A DNA stretch of 5,191 nucleotides from a virus (Duplodnaviria; Heunggongvirae; Uroviricota; Caudoviricetes), in IMG/VR virus record IMGVR_UViG_2565956611_000004, positions 1-5,191 of that record. One strand, 5' to 3'. This document shows positions 1 to 5,191 of this stretch, in pieces. The notes under the pieces were generated by a model. The model did not search any database. It was not told the DNA's origin and saw nothing but the letters and a program-made list of their open reading frames with translations. A program made the position numbers and the translations under genes. Numbering within the stretch: the stretch's first letter is position 1; the number at the start of each line of letters is the position of its first letter.

Positions 1-46
1 AGGTTGCTCCGGGCTATGAAATAGAAAAATGAATCCGTTGAAGCCT
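1..46. other. Host chromosomal flank (attB B-arm side) adjoining the prophage attL
   Basis: The sequence left of the core (aatccgttgaagcctg) matches what I recall of the E. coli attB flank, not the lambda attP P arm. No ORF is assigned here. Confidence 0.55.
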
Positions 47-61
47 GCTTTTTTATACTAA
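47..61. other. attL: attL common core / overlap region (GCTTTTTTATACTAA) of a lambda-type site-specific recombination site
   Basis: Exact 15-bp lambda att core, with the P' arm sequence to its right and non-phage sequence to its left. Confidence 0.85.
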
Positions 62-85
62 GTTGGCATTATAAAAAAGCATTGC

Positions 86-98
86 TTATCAATTTGTT
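86..98. promoter_or_regulatory. IHF binding site (H' of the att P' arm)
   Basis: TATCAATTTGTTG fits the IHF consensus WATCAANNNNTTR and sits at the expected position between the core and the arm-type Int sites. Confidence 0.6.
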
Positions 99-106
99 GC
101 AACGAA

Positions 107-137
107 CAGGTCACTATCAGTCAAAATAAAATCATTA
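107..137. promoter_or_regulatory. Int arm-type binding sites P'1-P'3 of the P' arm
   Basis: Tandem arm-type-like repeats caggtcactat / cagtcaaaat / aaaatcatta directly abut the int stop codon (TAA at 135-137 on the minus strand). Confidence 0.6.
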
Positions 138-1205
138 TTTGATTTCAATTTTGTCCCACTCCCTGCCTCTGTCATCACGATACTGTGATGCCATGGTGTC
201 CGACTTATGCCCGAGAAGATGTTGAGCAAACTTATCGCTTATCTGCTTCTCATAGAGTCTTGCAGACAAACTGCGCAACTCGTGAAAGGTAGGCGGATCC
301 CCTTCGAAGGAAAGACCTGATGCTTTTCGTGCGCGCATAAAATACCTTGATACTGTGCCGGATGAAAGCGGTTCGCGACGAGTAGATGCAATTATGGTTT
401 CTCCGCCAAGAATCTCTTTGCATTTATCAAGTGTTTCCTTCATTGATATTCCGAGAGCATCAACATGCAATGCTGTTGGGATGGCAATTTTTACGCCTGT
501 TTTGCTTTGCTCGACATAAAGATATCCATCTACGATATCAGACCACTTCATTTCGCATAAATCACCAACTCGTTGCCCGGTAACAACAGCCAGTTCCATT
601 GCAAGTCTGAGCCAACATGGTGATGATTCTGCTGCTTGATAAATTTTCAGGTATTCGTCAGCCGTAAGTCTTGATCTCCTTACCTCTGATTTTGCTGCGC
701 GAGTGGCAGCGACAGGGTTTGTTGTTATATGGCCTTCAGCTATTGCCTCTCGGAATGCATCGCTCAGTGTTGATCTGATTAACTTGGCTGACGCCGCCTT
801 GCCCTCGTCTATGTATCCATTGAGCATTGCCGCAATTTCTTTTGTGGTGATGTCTTCAAGTGGAGCATCAGGCAGACCCCTCCTTATTGCTTTAATTTTG
901 CTCATGTAATTTATGAGTGTCTTCTGCTTGATTCCTCTGCTGGCCAGGATTTTTTCGTAGCGATCAAGCCATGAATGTAACGTAACGGAATTATCACTGT
1001 TGATTCTCGCTGTCAGAGGCTTGTGTTTGTGTCCTGAAAATAACTCAATGTTGGCCTGTATGGCTTCAGTGATTGCGATTCGCCTGTCTCTGCCTAATCC
1101 AAACTCTTTACCCGTCCTTGGGTCCCTGTAGCAGTAATATCCATTGTTTCTTATATAAAGGTTAGGGGGTAAATCCCGGCGCTCATGACTTCGCCTTCTT
1201 CCCAT
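135..1205 (-). CDS. int: Lambda-type integrase (tyrosine recombinase), 356 aa
   Basis: The translation matches lambda Int as I recall it, with the catalytic residues in place (R212, K235, H308, R311, H333, Y342). It ends next to the att P' arm. Confidence 0.97.
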   Translation of the reverse strand: MGRRRSHERRDLPPNLYIRNNGYYCYRDPRTGKEFGLGRDRRIAITEAIQANIELFSGHKHKPLTARINSDNSVTLHSWLDRYEKILASRGIKQKTLINYMSKIKAIRRGLPDAPLEDITTKEIAAMLNGYIDEGKAASAKLIRSTLSDAFREAIAEGHITTNPVAATRAAKSEVRRSRLTADEYLKIYQAAESSPCWLRLAMELAVVTGQRVGDLCEMKWSDIVDGYLYVEQSKTGVKIAIPTALHVDALGISMKETLDKCKEILGGETIIASTRREPLSSGTVSRYFMRARKASGLSFEGDPPTFHELRSLSARLYEKQISDKFAQHLLGHKSDTMASQYRDDRGREWDKIEIK

Positions 1206-1401
1206 TTCTGATCCTCTTCAAAAGGCTACCTGTTACTGGTCGATTTAAGTCAACCTTTACCGCTGATTCGTGGAACAGATACTCTCTTCCATCCTTAACC
1301 GGAGGAGGGAATATCCTGCACTCGCGTACCCATCGACGAACTGTTTCAAGGCTTCTTGGGCGTCGCTGGCGTGCGTTCCACTCCTGAAGTGTCAAGTACA
1401 T
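1183..1401 (-). CDS. xis: Lambda-type excisionase, 72 aa
   Basis: The translation MYLTLQEWNARQRRPRSLETVRRWVRECRIF... matches lambda Xis as recalled. The 3' end overlaps the int start by 23 nt, as in lambda. Confidence 0.95.
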   Translation of the reverse strand: MYLTLQEWNARQRRPRSLETVRRWVRECRIFPPPVKDGREYLFHESAVKVDLNRPVTGSLLKRIRNGKKAKS

Positions 1402-1413
1402 CGCAAAGTCTCC

Positions 1414-1427
1414 GCAATTACACGCAA
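1414..1427 (-). promoter_or_regulatory. cII-binding direct repeat TTGC-N6-TTGC of the pI promoter (-35 region), just upstream of the xis start
   Basis: The minus strand reads TTGCGTGTAATTGC 13 nt upstream of the xis ATG. In lambda the pI promoter is cII-activated and its transcript begins inside xis. Confidence 0.6.
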
Positions 1428-1450
1428 GAAAAAACCGCCATCAGGCGGCT
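1426..1450 (-). terminator. Putative intrinsic terminator-like hairpin on the leftward transcript, just upstream of the pI cII site
   Basis: The minus strand reads GCCGCC-TGAT-GGCGG followed by TTTTTTCTT (a GC stem plus T-tract). I recall the same element at this position in lambda. Confidence 0.5.
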
Positions 1451-1514
1451 TGGTGTTCTTTCAGTTCTTCAATTCGAATATTGGTTACATTGTTTTCATA
1501 TATGAATAAATAAA

Positions 1515-1694
1515 TTAGCTTTTTCCGTTGCCTTCGCGATCTTTATTAATTTTGACAAACTCGTTTTTACCACGCTCTCCAAATGCGTCTTTAGAGTCGT
1601 TGTATCCGCAATCGCAGCACACATAATCACCAGACCATCCACGCATTGTTTTTTCTTTTGCAATATTTCCAGAACCGCATTTTGGACAAGACAT
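1515..1694 (-). CDS. Small zinc-ribbon protein (about 59 aa; CPKC-x17-CCDC)
   Basis: The ORF track entry 1515..1727 begins at a TTG. An internal ATG at 1694 has a GGAGGT Shine-Dalgarno 6 nt upstream, giving MSCPKCGSGN... Two CxxC pairs are spaced as in a zinc ribbon. Confidence 0.6.
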   Translation of the reverse strand: MSCPKCGSGNIAKEKTMRGWSGDYVCCDCGYNDSKDAFGERGKNEFVKINKDREGNGKS

Positions 1695-1790
1695 ATCACT
1701 ACCTCCAAAGCATGAGTGAGATGACAACGTAACATTGATTGGAGATTAACAATAGATTGCTGATGTAAAAGATATGTATAAGCTTCGCTT

Positions 1791-2672
1791 TCAAAGTGGA
1801 GGCTCTGGTAGCGGCATCCAGTGTGACGGCTCACATACCCCCTCAACACCATTCATGTAAAAGAATTGAAATAACCCTTTACCTTTGTGAAACCCTACCA
1901 TCTGCTCTTTAGTGTCTGAGCAATAAACCAAAACATCTTCTTCGTTTGGCATTCGATCACTACAGCTTATCCAACCATCCGGAGTTACCGGAGAGTTGCC
2001 AGCTAGTCTACGCAAAACAGCCTTAACAGCCTCAATACGGTCATCATCGCAACTTTCCAGCGTATCTATGCGATCGAGCATGATGATGGCGTTATCAATA
2101 TCAGGATTGCCGGTCCACTCATTACCGCGATTGGATTCGGCAGCCTGGTTGCCAGATGCTGGCTGATTGTCGGCTTGGCTATAGCTAACAGCACGGCAGG
2201 CATCCTCTACGTTCTTCACTGCATCTGCGCAGTAGTTATAGCGATTGCATTCCACTAACTTCTGCTTGAGATTTTCAATTGCTTGCGCGACATCAGCCTG
2301 TATTGGCGGAACGGCTGTTTGCTCTCGAACGTCATTAGTCGCTATCGGTTCTGCTGCCAACTGACTGGCATATTTGTTAATGGTAACGATAAGCTCTTGC
2401 TCGGCCTCATCCAGACAATCACCGATACCTCGCCTGTCACCGTCAAAATCATCGAAATCGGCACGAATCCTGGCAACCTCCCGGATTGCGGACAACACTT
2501 CACCAGGAATAAGCGGAGAGTTGCCCGATAGTACATTCTGCTCCAGCGATGCCAGAGCAATTCGTGCCAGTTCTTCCGCTTCTTCTGCTGGCAGTACAAC
2601 GTTGCTACCAGGTCCGTATGTTTCGCGCCACTGCTTGATTGTCAGTAGTCGCTCTTTGGTTATAGTGGTCAT
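1791..2672 (-). CDS. Ea22-like early-region protein with a DUF551-like C-terminal domain, 293 aa
   Basis: The C-terminus (...WISCSDRMPNEEDVLVY...EPSHWMPLPEPPL) resembles the DUF551 signature found at the ends of Ea22-like prophage proteins. Its start overlaps the upstream stop (ATGA). Confidence 0.8.
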   Translation of the reverse strand: MTTITKERLLTIKQWRETYGPGSNVVLPAEEAEELARIALASLEQNVLSGNSPLIPGEVLSAIREVARIRADFDDFDGDRRGIGDCLDEAEQELIVTINKYASQLAAEPIATNDVREQTAVPPIQADVAQAIENLKQKLVECNRYNYCADAVKNVEDACRAVSYSQADNQPASGNQAAESNRGNEWTGNPDIDNAIIMLDRIDTLESCDDDRIEAVKAVLRRLAGNSPVTPDGWISCSDRMPNEEDVLVYCSDTKEQMVGFHKGKGLFQFFYMNGVEGVCEPSHWMPLPEPPL

Positions 2673-2878
2673 TTGTTAACCCTCAAAACTTTATGCCCGG
2701 GCGCAAAAGCACGCGTTTTGTCTTTGCTTATTCGCCAGCCATCCTTGCGCGCCTCTTTTGCACAGCCAGCCCATGACGTACCTATATACTCACCGAAGTC
2801 TGGCACTGGATATACACCTTCCGTGCACTGACGGCAGTCACAATAGAGATGCATTGTGTAACTTGCGGCAATAGCCAT
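2669..2878 (-). CDS. Small Cys/His-rich hypothetical protein, 69 aa (possible metal-binding)
   Basis: Strong Shine-Dalgarno (AAGGAGG, 5-nt spacer) before the ATG at 2878. It contains H10, C13, C15, C18 and C39, and is translationally coupled to both neighbours. Confidence 0.65.
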   Translation of the reverse strand: MAIAASYTMHLYCDCRQCTEGVYPVPDFGEYIGTSWAGCAKEARKDGWRISKDKTRAFAPGHKVLRVNK

Positions 2879-2879
2879 A

Positions 2880-3344
2880 TCACCCTCCTTTACCCTGAAG
2901 CATGGCGTCGCTCCGCTCTATACCATCCAGCGCGATTCGCAGTGCCTGAATTGTGGTAGTGCTATCGTTTGGGGCTATTCCATATCGCTCGAATACAGCT
3001 AAATGGTTGCGCATAATCTCAGGCGTAAGCTCTTTGTAAGCATAAGCAAGAGGCTCTGATGCATTATCCGGCACAACCGACGCAGGCGCGGCAGCATAAA
3101 CAGGAATAACGTCCGCTTGCTCTTTATTGCTTTCATCCGTTAAAGCCCAGAATAATTTCCCGGCCGGATGTTTGAAAATATAAGCAACTGGTTCTGCACT
3201 ATCAGCTTCGCGCCGCTTCTGTAGCTCTGCTGCCATTGCTCTCACGACTTCAACTGGTGCCCTTGCGGCAAACTCTATGTTGGTGATCAGCTCATTAAGA
3301 TATTGCTCGCTGGGATACTGTTTCTTATTGGTAATAGTGGTCAT
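2880..3344 (-). CDS. Hypothetical protein, 154 aa
   Basis: Shine-Dalgarno GAAGGA upstream; its ATG overlaps the upstream stop (ATGA at 3341-3344). No motif recognised. Confidence 0.7.
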   Translation of the reverse strand: MTTITNKKQYPSEQYLNELITNIEFAARAPVEVVRAMAAELQKRREADSAEPVAYIFKHPAGKLFWALTDESNKEQADVIPVYAAAPASVVPDNASEPLAYAYKELTPEIMRNHLAVFERYGIAPNDSTTTIQALRIALDGIERSDAMLQGKGG

Positions 3345-3856
3345 GCCGCGTTTCCTTCTTTCTTATTAACAATTACACCGTCATATATTTCATTAAGGTG
3401 CCCTCTCAACTCCATGCGCCTTAATGCAGATAACATGTAATCGCATTCAACCTGCTTATTTCCAGTAAATGGCTTATCGTCAGGATTACCCCAACAGCAA
3501 TTACCCTTGGGCCACCCATGTACTTTCCGTACTCTTCCGTTAACAACGTGAAGTAATCCCCAGCCAGGTGGTAAATCCTCAATTGAAATAATTCCCGGCT
3601 CACTAATAAAGAATCGCCAGTCGCCCATTCCAAGAGACGGATTTTTACGAAAACGCTTTTTTCTATCTGCCAACAAGTCAGCACGAGAACACTTCGCCTC
3701 TATCAGGCATGATGCTGAATTTCTGAATCCCATAGCATCTGGCTGTTCTCCGGTACTGGTTACAGCTATAAAGCGGTCATGAAAACAAACCTTGAACCCG
3801 TTGCGCTTAAGGAACTTGTACGCAATCTGACAGAGTTCGCGGTGTGTTAACGCCAT
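3341..3856 (-). CDS. Putative PD-(D/E)xK superfamily nuclease (Hjc/VRR-NUC-like arrangement), 171 aa
   Basis: Start refined to the ATG at 3856, which has an AAGGAG Shine-Dalgarno with a 6-nt spacer. The track's 195-aa form begins at an upstream GTG inside the preceding gene. Motif reading: E7 ... GEQPD40AMGF ... CLIE53AK55, i.e. E / PD / ExK with nuclease-like spacing. Confidence 0.6.
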   Translation of the reverse strand: MALTHRELCQIAYKFLKRNGFKVCFHDRFIAVTSTGEQPDAMGFRNSASCLIEAKCSRADLLADRKKRFRKNPSLGMGDWRFFISEPGIISIEDLPPGWGLLHVVNGRVRKVHGWPKGNCCWGNPDDKPFTGNKQVECDYMLSALRRMELRGHLNEIYDGVIVNKKEGNAA

Positions 3857-3857
3857 A

Positions 3858-4046
3858 TCACTCTCCTTTAGTGCGCAAGTGGTTTTTCCAGCGGTTTTGC
3901 GCCGCGCTGGGCTTTTTGCAAAAACCACAATCCATCATCCCGTAATATTTCATCAACCCCATCCGTCGGTTGCTGAGTCTCACCCACTGCCAGACGCCAG
4001 GAGCGTTTCTACGAACTAACAGAATCTTTGCTTTACGGTTTTTCAT
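3858..4046 (-). CDS. Small basic protein, 62 aa (paralog A; MKNRKAK... N-terminus)
   Basis: Its ATG overlaps the stop of the upstream paralog (ATGA), and its own stop lies 1 nt before the nuclease-like gene's ATG. Lys/Arg-rich. Confidence 0.6.
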   Translation of the reverse strand: MKNRKAKILLVRRNAPGVWQWVRLSNRRMGLMKYYGMMDCGFCKKPSAAQNRWKNHLRTKGE

Positions 4047-4047
4047 C
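4027..4047. repeat. Direct repeat copy 1 (tttgctttacggtttttcatc), covering the start of the 62-aa ORF
   Basis: 20 of 21 nt identical to 4200-4220. Confidence 0.8.
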
Positions 4048-4219
4048 TTACAGCGTACCCTTTCTTCCGCCTGTTCTGTGACGCAGTAGGCTTACGCTTT
4101 GCGGCAAAAGCCACCTGACCAAATGGATGGAGTACCGCTATCTTATGGTTGCTAATAACCAGCTCCACCACACGCACAGGTCGCTGTAAAAAAAGTCGTT
4201 TTGCCTTACGGTTTTTCAT
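4043..4219 (-). CDS. Small basic protein, 58 aa (paralog B; MKNRKAKRLFLQRPVRVVELVISNHKIAVLHPFGQVAFAAKRKPTASQNRRKKGYAVR)
   Basis: Not in the supplied ORF track; found by manual translation. AGGAGAG Shine-Dalgarno about 8 nt upstream. It shares the N-terminal MKNRKAK and the C-terminal K(K/R)KP(S/T)A(A/S)QNR motif with the 62-aa ORF. Confidence 0.5.
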   Translation of the reverse strand: MKNRKAKRLFLQRPVRVVELVISNHKIAVLHPFGQVAFAAKRKPTASQNRRKKGYAVR

Positions 4220-4220
4220 C
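4200..4220. repeat. Direct repeat copy 2 (tttgccttacggtttttcatc), covering the start of the 58-aa ORF
   Basis: 20 of 21 nt identical to 4027-4047. Confidence 0.8.
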
Positions 4221-4391
4221 GCTTTGCTCTCCTGCGTCTCTTTGCTGCTCGTCGTGCCGCTGCAATACCGGTATGGCGGCGCTTTGGTGCCGGGATGATG
4301 TTGTCAGCCATCAGGACATGTGGCTTTGCAATTAGCGCAGAAGCCCAAAAACGAGTCGGGTACGGTAACAAGCCGATACATGCCACACGCA

Positions 4392-4880
4392 CTACTCACC
4401 TCCGTTGATGCGAATGCCTGTTGCAATGCTGTTTATGATGCTGTCAGTGCATGGGGTAGAAAGCTGGGCATCTCCAGCAATTTTCATGACATCAACATCT
4501 GCATATCGAATACCGAGGTGTATCAGACCGGCTATACCTGACTTAAGCCGAGCATTTTCCATAAACAGATCCTTTGCCCGCTGTTTTTCTGCCTCAAGCT
4601 CAACGCGCAACTTCCCTACCGTTAGCGCAATATCCTCGTTCTCCTGGTCGCGGGATTTGATGTATTGCTGGTTCCTTTCCCGTTCATCCAGTAGTGCCAG
4701 CACGGTTTCTGGTCCGGCCAGAAATTTGAAGGCGTTGAGCGCATCAATATCCACACCGTAATCTTTAAGTTCCTGTTCACTTAACAAATCATCATCAGCT
4801 GGCAACATTAACAGGCGTTCCATTGCTGGAATTGCACGTTCCGCCGCCTCACGCAGTGCCTGGTAATTAATTTCGCTCAC
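4392..4880 (-). CDS. Ea22-like protein, 162 aa (lambda Ea22 homolog with a divergent central region)
   Basis: GTG start with a strong Shine-Dalgarno (AAGGAGG, 6-nt spacer). N-terminus MSEINYQALREAAE..., the block LLDERERNQQYIKSRDQENEDIALTVGKLRVELE, and the C-terminal ...GIRINGGE resemble lambda Ea22 as I recall it. Confidence 0.85.
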   Translation of the reverse strand: MSEINYQALREAAERAIPAMERLLMLPADDDLLSEQELKDYGVDIDALNAFKFLAGPETVLALLDERERNQQYIKSRDQENEDIALTVGKLRVELEAEKQRAKDLFMENARLKSGIAGLIHLGIRYADVDVMKIAGDAQLSTPCTDSIINSIATGIRINGGE

Positions 4881-5191
4881 TGGTTGCCTCCTTTGCGAAG
4901 CTGGGCAGCAAAGTCAACTAACCACTCAGTCATTTCAACCTTCCCTACCAGATCTGAACCAGGGTGCATACAGCAATCACTCTGCGCCGCTTTGAAATCC
5001 TTATACTCATATTCTTGGGCCACCAGATTTTTTGCAGCTTCTATAGCAGCATCCACGCCCTGCGCCCGCACTTCAGCCAGGAAAGCATCGGTGGCTGGGG
5101 TTTCAGTAACATCATCTTCCCATTCGCTAAACTCCTCACGACAAAAGTCATTAAATTCCTTCTCAGATTGCTTAAGCGAGGTATTTTCAGC
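4877..5191 (-). CDS. Hypothetical protein, 5'-truncated by the window edge (at least 105 codons in the window)
   Basis: The minus-strand frame is open from the window edge to the TGA at 4877-4879, which overlaps the GTG start of the Ea22-like gene (GTGA). The track's 64-aa ORF is this frame cut at an internal GTG. Confidence 0.6.
   Translation of the reverse strand, partial: AENTSLKQSEKEFNDFCREEFSEWEDDVTETPATDAFLAEVRAQGVDAAIEAAKNLVAQEYEYKDFKAAQSDCCMHPGSDLVGKVEMTEWLVDFAAQLRKGGNQ

Follow-up and report, generated by a model that had tools for sequence, protein, structure and literature searches.

Probable exchangeable cassettes, one encoding a predicted PD-(D/E)xK enzyme, in the early-left region of a lambda-like prophage

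Genes that follow one another so closely that each start codon touches or overlaps the preceding stop codon invite the question of whether their products work together. This question is raised by a block of minus-strand open reading frames (ORFs) in a 5,191-nucleotide (nt) stretch of viral DNA (Caudoviricetes; positions 1 to 5,191 of the IMG/VR record IMGVR_UViG_2565956611_000004), hereafter the window, which is the left end of a lambda-like prophage and in which every gene from int onward lies on the minus strand. An initial annotation suggested that products of 58, 62, 171, 154 and 69 amino acids (aa), followed by one of 293 aa (here p58a, p62, p171, p154, p69 and p293), are made in fixed proportions and form an undescribed accessory module, with a defence or anti-defence role or as a toxin with its modulators. 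All six ORFs were found on the minus strand where that annotation had placed them (Table 1). We show herein that each of these genes often occurs without the others. With a probability of roughly 0.8, the block is a hypervariable 'ea'/exo-xis array of individually exchangeable cassettes, including one stand-alone PD-(D/E)xK enzyme, and not a co-functioning module.

Whether the genes travel as a unit was judged from the best 80 IMG/VR matches to each of four seeds (p171, p62, p69 and p154) and from 34 genome loci, with all window proteins scored against every locus. Among the 63 informative loci retrieved with p171 (98-100% identical), 24 lack every other gene of the block, and a single one shows the complete order p58b>p58a>p62>p171>p154>p69, which includes a further small ORF, p58b. 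The full set was present in three loci each of the p62-, p69- and p154-seeded sets. p69 stood alone in 22 of 66 informative p69-seeded loci, and p154 in 14 of 51 informative loci of its own set. The 67 informative p62-seeded loci contained p171 in 32 cases, p69 in 43 and p58b in 61, the commonest arrangement being p58b>p62>p69. The initial annotation had itself proposed a comparison across prophages, and had accepted that genes never found together would speak against it; separation is largely what was observed. Of the features looked for in a co-functional module, neither conserved co-occurrence nor, in a PADLOC scan, similarity to known defence proteins was found.

The same picture emerges from complete E. 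coli genomes. Some part of the block is matched in 1,935 of 5,426 genomes, only 27 cover at least 80% of it, and in none of the 5,426 does a single location contain 80% or more of the whole window. The alignments that cover at least 80% of the block are short of about 173 nt. Matches to the block at 97.5-99.9% identity, with about 173 nt missing and p58a absent, occur in many plasmids (about 81-107 kb) and in a few chromosomes. In two inspected copies (L001, the chromosome of strain APEC17, and L002, the P1-like phage-plasmid pC21-2; 6001-7551), p171 and p154 are annotated as frameshifted or incomplete pseudogenes, beside which p62 and p69 are intact; pC21-2 also encodes P1-type doc/phd, hot and humD-like genes. 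TUM1880 likewise has a frameshifted ORF at the p171 position and an intact p62.

The families of the putative partners also differ in breadth. The p62 family comprises 60 clusters, for which the only genera named are Escherichia and Salmonella, and the p69 family comprises 47 clusters with named sources in Escherichia, Shigella, Salmonella, Kosakonia and Pantoea. Because these families are narrow and the nuclease family extends across several bacterial phyla, p62 and p69 cannot be obligate partners of p171. In taxonomically diverse genome loci, p171 homologs never occurred with the other genes, save for sporadic weak matches. When the four nearest same-strand neighbours of p171 homologs were collected from 32 diverse loci, the resulting 125 ORFs contained no conserved partner. 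They included Ead/Ea22 proteins (7), DNA methyltransferases (7), DUF551 (3), and two each of NinG, NinB, Exc and TraC; further neighbours were RusA, RdgC and DUF968. These are generic mobile-element DNA-metabolism neighbourhoods.

The close packing of the genes is nonetheless real. The junctions of the six ORFs are all ATGA overlaps or 1-nt gaps, as the initial annotation had stated: a 4-nt ATGA overlap joins p58a to p62, p171 to p154 and p69 to p293, and a 1-nt gap separates p62 from p171 and p154 from p69. The Shine-Dalgarno (SD) sequences said to lie inside the preceding gene are clear for p171 and p69 (AAGGAG/AAGGAGG) and weaker for p154, p62 and p293. The packing does not stop at the five small genes, however. 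The truncated ORF that leaves the window on the right overlaps the Ead/Ea22-like gene p162 by 4 nt, p162 overlaps p58b by 1 nt, p58b overlaps p58a by 4 nt, and a similar linker lies ahead of the zinc-ribbon gene, i.e. on the xis side of the block. Because it continues on both sides, tight packing is a trait of the whole operon and not of five genes. Thus, the architecture of translational coupling, with overlapping stop and start codons and internal SD sequences, is present, yet it is generic for the operon and extends outside the block. Tight packing is common in phage early operons, and by itself is no evidence of stoichiometric coupling.

The junctions have another property, in that their sequences recur. 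Three classes of shared linker, 15-20 nt long and composed of ribosome-binding site, stop/start and initial codons, were recognized within the window. Class A (AAAGGAGRGTGATATGGC) lies ahead of p171 and p69, and partly ahead of the zinc-ribbon gene; class B (ATGACCACTATWACCAA) forms the start of p154 and of p293; and class C (ATGAAAAACCGTAARGCAAA) forms the start of both small paralogs, p62 and p58a. Both p154 and p293 begin with MTTIT because the class B linker encodes these codons. A candidate paralogy of p154 and p293 was rejected, since these five linker-encoded N-terminal residues are all that they have in common. In other loci, an identical sequence after p62 (...ACTAAAGGAGAGTGATATGGC) runs into either p171 or p69, and an identical sequence after p171 (...GCGGCATGAYCACTATTACCA) runs into p154, a p293-like gene or others. 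After p69, several alternative genes open with the same class B linker.

Homology also breaks at these places. In the interval 2500-4500, 848 of 1,251 BLASTN alignment ends (68%) fall no more than 25 nt from a gene junction, compared to 18% expected by position. Other hot spots are the interior of p154 (around residue 50), the interior of p293 (around residues 42-50) and the vicinity of the p162 end; many loci match p154 from residue 50 on only, at 95-98% identity. As breakpoints cluster inside p154 and p293, these genes are mosaic at the domain level. The linkers are common to alternative downstream genes and coincide with breakpoints. The arrangements p62-A-p69 and p171-B-DUF551 are common, and the order in the window, p62-A-p171-B-p154-A-p69-B-p293, is therefore as expected from recombination at A and B linkers between commoner arrangements. 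Both the sharing of linkers and this order fit the boundary-sequence model of phage mosaicism (PMC3233612). The coupling sequences here are linkers shared at exchange points and make a clear case of that model; to find stop and start codons so tightly coupled in the early operon of a phage is no evidence of a functional module.

Which of the cassettes can be given a function? The strongest candidate is p171, which the initial annotation had called nuclease-like, naming D40, E53 and K55 as residues to mutate, and in this respect it was borne out. The AlphaFold model of p171 (predicted local distance difference test, pLDDT, 78.8; predicted template modelling score, pTM, 0.76) has the alpha-beta-beta-beta-alpha-beta core of the PD-(D/E)xK fold, in which D40 stands at the head of the second strand (41-45), with E53 and K55 at the end of the third (48-54). 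The putative catalytic motif, D40, E53 and K55, is invariant, together with E37, in 38 close and 56 distant relatives; among the latter, D60, D64, K67, R70, G78 and R81 are invariant as well. Codon variants are 156 synonymous to 42 non-synonymous, which indicates strong purifying selection.

The family is large and mostly unnamed. p171 had no Pfam match at E<=1 and no NCBIfam or PADLOC match, and sequence searches of p171, p69 and p154 against Protein Data Bank (PDB) chains gave nothing significant. It belongs to PHROG families 9263 and 631, whose function is uncharacterised. A word-indexed search found homologs in 324 clusters, all labelled hypothetical, and an exhaustive profile search found 3,283 clusters (50% identity), and among the 150 that scored best the majority are stand-alone proteins of about 110-220 aa. 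Homologs occur in 641 phage records, among them Vibrio phages and virulent phages of 134-160 kb (Ackermannviridae-size) of Salmonella, Klebsiella, Dickeya and others, and the 34 genome loci range from Enterobacterales to Shewanella, Salinicola, a Rhodobiaceae (alphaproteobacterial) metagenome-assembled genome and Flavobacterium.

Two named families lie nearby. The closest structural similarity of p171 is to 3dnx (SPO1766) of the MmcB-like/DUF1052 family (PF06319). The family profile matches 3dnx weakly (E 0.33), with an alignment that exactly spans D..IExKxSRxDFxAD, and several neighbours in a viral structure library carry the name 'DNA repair protein MmcB-like' (E 7e-7 to 2e-4); type II restriction enzymes are also among the structural neighbours. 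Weak Pfam matches among the 56 distant relatives were to Hjc (10), MmcB-like (6) and UPF0102 (1). A previous study on Caulobacter described MmcB as a PD-(D/E)XK endonuclease with a protective role against mitomycin C and cisplatin (PMC9578287). However, the Pfam MmcB-like model misses p171 and finds the six relatives only weakly (best E 2.9e-4), p171 has an extra conserved C-terminal region (GWGLL, KPFxxNKQxE, RR), and its gene is in phage early operons, whereas MmcB is an SOS-regulated chromosomal gene. The similarity to the archaeal Holliday-junction resolvase Hjc (PF01870) is weak and below the curated threshold, and some loci already carry RusA or NinG beside the p171 homolog. Thus, p171 is akin to MmcB-like and Hjc proteins in fold and active site but misses the curated sequence threshold of both, and it is predicted, from its sequence and model, to be a PD-(D/E)xK enzyme of an unmodelled family that adjoins them.

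The protein itself has been recorded before. p171 is 100% identical to Upf89.0 of phage P7 (AF503408), which lies in the C1-controlled 'hea' operon between the Ead-like Upf88.3 and the DUF551-type Upf89.5. Its identity to gp12 of Shigella phage Ss-VASD, where Ead-like and DUF551 genes again form the flanks, is also 100%, and it is about 99-100% identical in many Shiga toxin (Stx)-converting phages. Unlike the gene in the window, these homologs have no adjacent p62, p58a, p154 or p69, and all are annotated as hypothetical or of uncharacterised function. With this identity, and with every product of the block assigned to an existing PHROG family, 'undescribed' does not apply. What the results allow is the description of a very widespread 'hypothetical' protein (P7 Upf89.0 and its relatives) as a predicted PD-(D/E)xK nuclease near MmcB-like and Hjc proteins, with its putative catalytic residues named, located in a hotspot that is just starting to yield anti-immunity proteins. 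No long-standing question is opened by them.

Some homologs of p171 carry additional sequences. An Ead/Ea22-type N-terminus is joined in frame to a complete or nearly complete p171-type domain in P0091, P0097 and P0104 (Salmonella) and in P0009 and P0100, and some of these fusions are annotated as 'ead/Ea22-like family protein'; P0005, P0020 and P0033 are C-terminal fusions of the p171 type to DUF551-type sequence. A gene-fusion (Rosetta-stone) link between p171 and p62 was considered and rejected, as the extended p171 forms inspected were Ead-like N-terminal or DUF551-type C-terminal fusions, or upstream alternative starts. Among the loci L006, L011, L012, L020, L027, L028 and L034, p171 homologs adjoin DNA methyltransferases of three unrelated families (Dam, N6_N4 and C5), and in one locus the homolog is followed directly by RusA and DUF968.

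According to the preferred reading, a lambda-like prophage at att-lambda would carry in this block a stretch of the 'ea'/exo-xis accessory array, from the Ead/Ea22-like gene to xis, in which each ORF would be an independent, exchangeable cassette. Judging from gene order, the block most likely belongs to a long N-antiterminated early-left (pL) transcript. Linkers with an embedded SD sequence may have a dual role, allowing translational re-initiation on the polycistronic mRNA and providing microhomology for cassette shuffling. p171 would be a DNA endonuclease that depends on a divalent metal and whose targets in early lytic growth are branched or damaged DNA intermediates; it may aid recombination, replication or repair of the phage and would need none of its present neighbours. 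p62, p58a, p69 and p154 would be separate accessory proteins of narrow host range. By analogy with lambda, the genes of the block are most likely read in lytic growth or upon induction and silent in the lysogen, which argues against a defence role expressed in the lysogen. A promoter scan of the block gave 4 promoter-like sites compared to 7.4 expected, so an internal promoter active in the lysogen is unsupported. No minus-strand terminator was found inside the block, the sole one being outside it and upstream of xis, and an Rfam scan of the window found no RNA family.

Several points weigh against this reading. The locus samples include related prophages, and the percentages are descriptive and not population estimates. 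The pairing p58b>p62 is rather stable (61 of 67 loci), p62 is then followed directly by p171 or p69, and some pairwise functional links are possible. The linkers may direct recombination, as we infer from their distribution, or they may survive it because selection retains them as translation signals. Finally, the substrate proposed for p171 is drawn from its fold relatives, whose functions vary (restriction, repair, resolution, and CRISPR ancillary nucleases).

The best surviving alternative is that p171 alone is an anti-defence or host-takeover nuclease, which would destroy host DNA, the nucleic acid of a defence system, or intermediates that trigger abortive infection. It sits in a recombination-linked hotspot that encodes the anti-OLD protein Oad2 and RecBCD inhibitors, an Oad2/EaE-like fragment lies about 1 kb upstream in the window, early expression from pL would be expected, and homologs are present in virulent Ackermannviridae-size phages and Vibrio phages. 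However, p171 resembles no known anti-defence protein, its nearest functionally annotated relatives are repair or resolution enzymes, the neighbours of its homologs are chiefly DNA-metabolism genes, and nothing tells the candidate substrates apart. We regard this alternative as possible but unlikely.

A more specific and still less probable version is that the p171 family, which occurs in temperate phages as well as in those of Ackermannviridae genome size, represents a new class of phage nuclease, which would remove or process the aberrant DNA intermediates or defence-system nucleic acids that set off abortive-infection systems responsive to recombination (OLD, retrons). If so, p171 would serve anti-immunity from within the recombination-linked hotspot, as Oad2 next to it does, and p62/p58a and p69 would inhibit other host systems, each evolving on its own. 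Novelty, if any, would most likely lie here, with p171, or one of the small proteins alone, as an anti-immunity factor of the hotspot.

The small cassettes gave fewer clues. Pfam, NCBIfam and PADLOC scans of all ten products returned only DUF551, Ead_Ea22 and weak zinc-ribbon/Lar matches. p69, p171, p58a and p58b had no Pfam match, p154 and p62 had insignificant ones only (E 0.08-1), and p58a had a single insignificant NCBIfam match. p62 and p58a are paralogs (37% identity, E 5e-10) and very basic (isoelectric points 11.3 and 12.0), as the initial annotation had noted, and p58a is a tandem duplicate of p62 that is absent from many loci that carry p62. Members of this family have invariant basic ends (MKNRKAK at the N-terminus and KPSAAQNRWKNH at the C-terminus), separated by a variable loop of about 16 residues, and an internal conserved ISN[RH][RK] motif; in some, fusion to Ead/Ea22 fragments or recombination with DUF4014 proteins has taken place. 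p69, described earlier as Cys-rich, has only three invariant cysteines, in a CxCxxC motif (C13, C15 and C18), together with a nearly invariant H62 and a variable C39; its codon variants (35 synonymous to 30 non-synonymous) indicate moderate constraint, and it is a putative CCCH zinc-site protein. A search for structural neighbours of p69 found none. The acidic p154 is similar, in its N-terminal half, to N-terminal portions of DUF551/EaA-type proteins, and it would be a truncated EaA-type protein. p293 has a C-terminal DUF551 match (E 1.8e-18) and is internally mosaic.

Are all of these products proteins in their own right? The ratios of synonymous to non-synonymous codon variants are 24:27 for p58a (moderate constraint), 26:41 for p62 (weak) and 20:46 for p58b, and since the last is near neutral, the coding status of p58b is doubtful, even though it is annotated in some RefSeq genomes (WP_001261538.1). 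Conceivably, p58b, and perhaps p62 and p58a, are translated as spacers that relay ribosomes and so keep translation going along the long transcript, or are remnants that carry linkers, and are not functional proteins. Such a reading would account for the ratios of p58b and p62, for the concentration of conservation at both ends of the p62 family and for the use of another frame in the middle of two rare variants. Against it, p62 and p58a encode the conserved QNR and lysine residues with different synonymous codons, which points to selection on the protein, the internal motif is conserved, and PHROG families exist for these ORFs. The reading is an improbable one. The extreme form, in which the p62 family would be conserved only as a DNA linker, was rejected because of the synonymous differences between the paralogs and the internal motif.

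The two rare variants just mentioned are P0368 and P0374, which use mid-gene the alternative p62 frame at 3868-3987 of the minus strand (GETQQPTDGV..LRDDGLWF) and retain the normal N-terminus and the KPSAAQNRWKNH motif; two compensating frameshifts are therefore implied. A separate observation concerns C-termini: the terminal KGE, KGG or GGE of p62 (3858-3866), p154 (2880-2888) and p162 (4392-4400) is encoded by the SD sequence of the next gene (AAGGAG/GGAGG). Ea22 proteins have an unexplained '+GE' motif at the C-terminus (PMC7093339), and C-terminal residues encoded by an SD sequence probably account for it.

Very unlikely, by comparison, is a single co-functional unit of five or six genes, with a role in defence or anti-defence or as a toxin with its modulators, in which coupling sets the stoichiometry of the nuclease and its small basic and Cys-rich partners. 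In its favour are the stop/start coupling, the reported anti-immunity genes of the region, the profile phrog_9263, which treats p62 and p171 as a single protein of 230 residues, and the fact that about half of the loci have p62 immediately before p171. Against these stand the independent assortment of near-identical p171 genes, P7 and Ss-VASD included; the 32 diverse loci without partners, save for sporadic weak matches; partner families limited to a few enterobacterial genera; the frameshifts of p171 in pC21-2, APEC17 and TUM1880 next to an intact p62 (and an intact p69 in the first two); the fusion of the inspected extended p171 forms to Ead-like or DUF551-type neighbours and not to p62; and the PADLOC scan, which had no match at E<=1 for p293, p69, p154, p171, p62, p58a or p58b, so that no PADLOC defence or anti-defence model fits any product of the block. 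The co-occurrence data have already largely refuted it. Just as improbable is that p171 is the endonuclease of a restriction-modification-like pair with its methyltransferase encoded elsewhere, since, although type II restriction enzymes are among its structural neighbours, 7 of the 125 neighbouring ORFs are methyltransferases and a Vibrio phage homolog overlaps a methyltransferase annotation, there is no methyltransferase domain in any window protein nor a methyltransferase in most loci, the adjoining methylases are of unrelated types and common as orphan phage methylases, p171 is small and single-domain without a recognisable specificity domain, and an unprotected specific endonuclease would be lethal in the many prophages that carry the gene.

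The surroundings of the block place it in a known variable region (Table 1). Bases 1-46 have no lambda match, and the best E. coli match borders on ybhC, which flanks att-lambda on the gal side; the left end of the window (1-134) for this reason starts in the attL (B-O-P') of an integrated prophage that occupies the classical lambda site. The DNA of xis and int is 98.7-99% identical to that of lambda and HK629, and lambda homology extends over att-int-xis and then returns only within the Ea22-like gene (around 4575-4703). Because it restarts only there, the block replaces lambda ea8.5/orf55 and the 3' part of ea22, between Ea22 homology and xis, much as the initial annotation had it. The hairpin between the zinc-ribbon gene and xis is oriented with early-left transcription, and the zinc-ribbon ORF has weak, sub-threshold matches to Lar restriction-alleviation and HVO_2753-type zinc-finger models. 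A related prophage has anti-RecBCD, SSB and Rad52-type recombinase genes upstream.

On the early-left strand, the block is bounded by an Ead/Ea22-family gene and by xis-int, gene content differs among related phages, and the boundaries of the modules are gene boundaries. It thus resembles the lambdoid exo-xis or P22 'ea' region in position and orientation, starting after an Ead/Ea22-like gene and stopping at xis-int, as well as in its DUF551/EaA-type genes, small uncharacterised ORFs and variable content (PMC8614690, PMC10834534). Previous studies reported that the early-left region after ea22 varies in the number and kind of its genes (PMC8614690), that Ea22 itself is mosaic (PMC10834534), and, recently, that the int-proximal early-left region is a hotspot of anti-immunity genes (bioRxiv 10.64898/2026.07.10.737580), which agrees with the description of this region as a hotspot in the initial annotation. 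Unlike lambda, the window is without ea8.5 and orf55, and its combination of cassettes is rare (1 of 63 loci; 0 of 5,426 complete E. coli genomes).

Table 1. Positions of genes, linkers and other features in the window
Feature	Positions	Strand	Remarks
lambda att core	47-61		GCTTTTTTATACTAA
int	135-1205	minus	
xis	1183-1401	minus	
Intrinsic-terminator-like hairpin, strong	1432-1451	minus	AAGCCGCC TGAT GGCGGTTT, then T run
Zinc-ribbon ORF	1515-1694	minus	CxxC...CxxC; phrog_2945; open frame to 1727, probable ATG at 1694
Partial class A linker	1692-1706	minus	GGAGGTAGTGATATG; before zinc-ribbon gene
p293	1791-2672	minus	EaA-type, C-terminal DUF551
Breakpoint cluster in p293	2520-2549		intragenic
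Class B linker, p69 to p293	2656-2672	minus	ATGACCACTATAACCAA
p69	2669-2878	minus	phrog_926
Class A linker, p154 to p69	2874-2891	minus	AAAGGAGGGTGATATGGC
p154	2880-3344	minus	phrog_6847
Breakpoint cluster in p154	3180-3209		intragenic
Class B linker, p171 to p154	3328-3344	minus	ATGACCACTATTACCAA; overlapping stop/start and codons MTTIT
p171	3341-3856	minus	predicted PD-(D/E)xK nuclease-fold protein
Class A linker, p62 to p171	3852-3869	minus	AAAGGAGAGTGATATGGC; SD, stop, 1 nt, start
p62	3858-4046	minus	phrog_1380
p58a	4043-4219	minus	p62 paralog
p58b	4216-4392	minus	GTG start; basic; phrog_13831
p162	4392-4880	minus	Ead/Ea22-like; PF13935 E 7.6e-33; upstream anchor of variable array
C-terminal part of ORF leaving right edge	4877-5191	minus	EaE/Oad2-like

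The ORF that leaves the right edge of the window, which ends in ...ETPATDAFLAEVRAQG...QLRKGGNQ, matches residues 118-175 of HK446 gp27 (tblastn E 9e-7). A recent study identified gp27 as the anti-OLD protein Oad2, related to P22 EaE and encoded in the hotspot (bioRxiv 10.64898/2026.07.10.737580). The HK446 copy fills the equivalent slot beside xis, and the window has this EaE/Oad2-like C-terminal fragment upstream of p162. A kinship of the five proteins of the proposed module to Oad2/EaE was considered and rejected, as only the fragment at the right edge resembles Oad2. An Oad2-like match was present in 110 of the 353 loci fetched.

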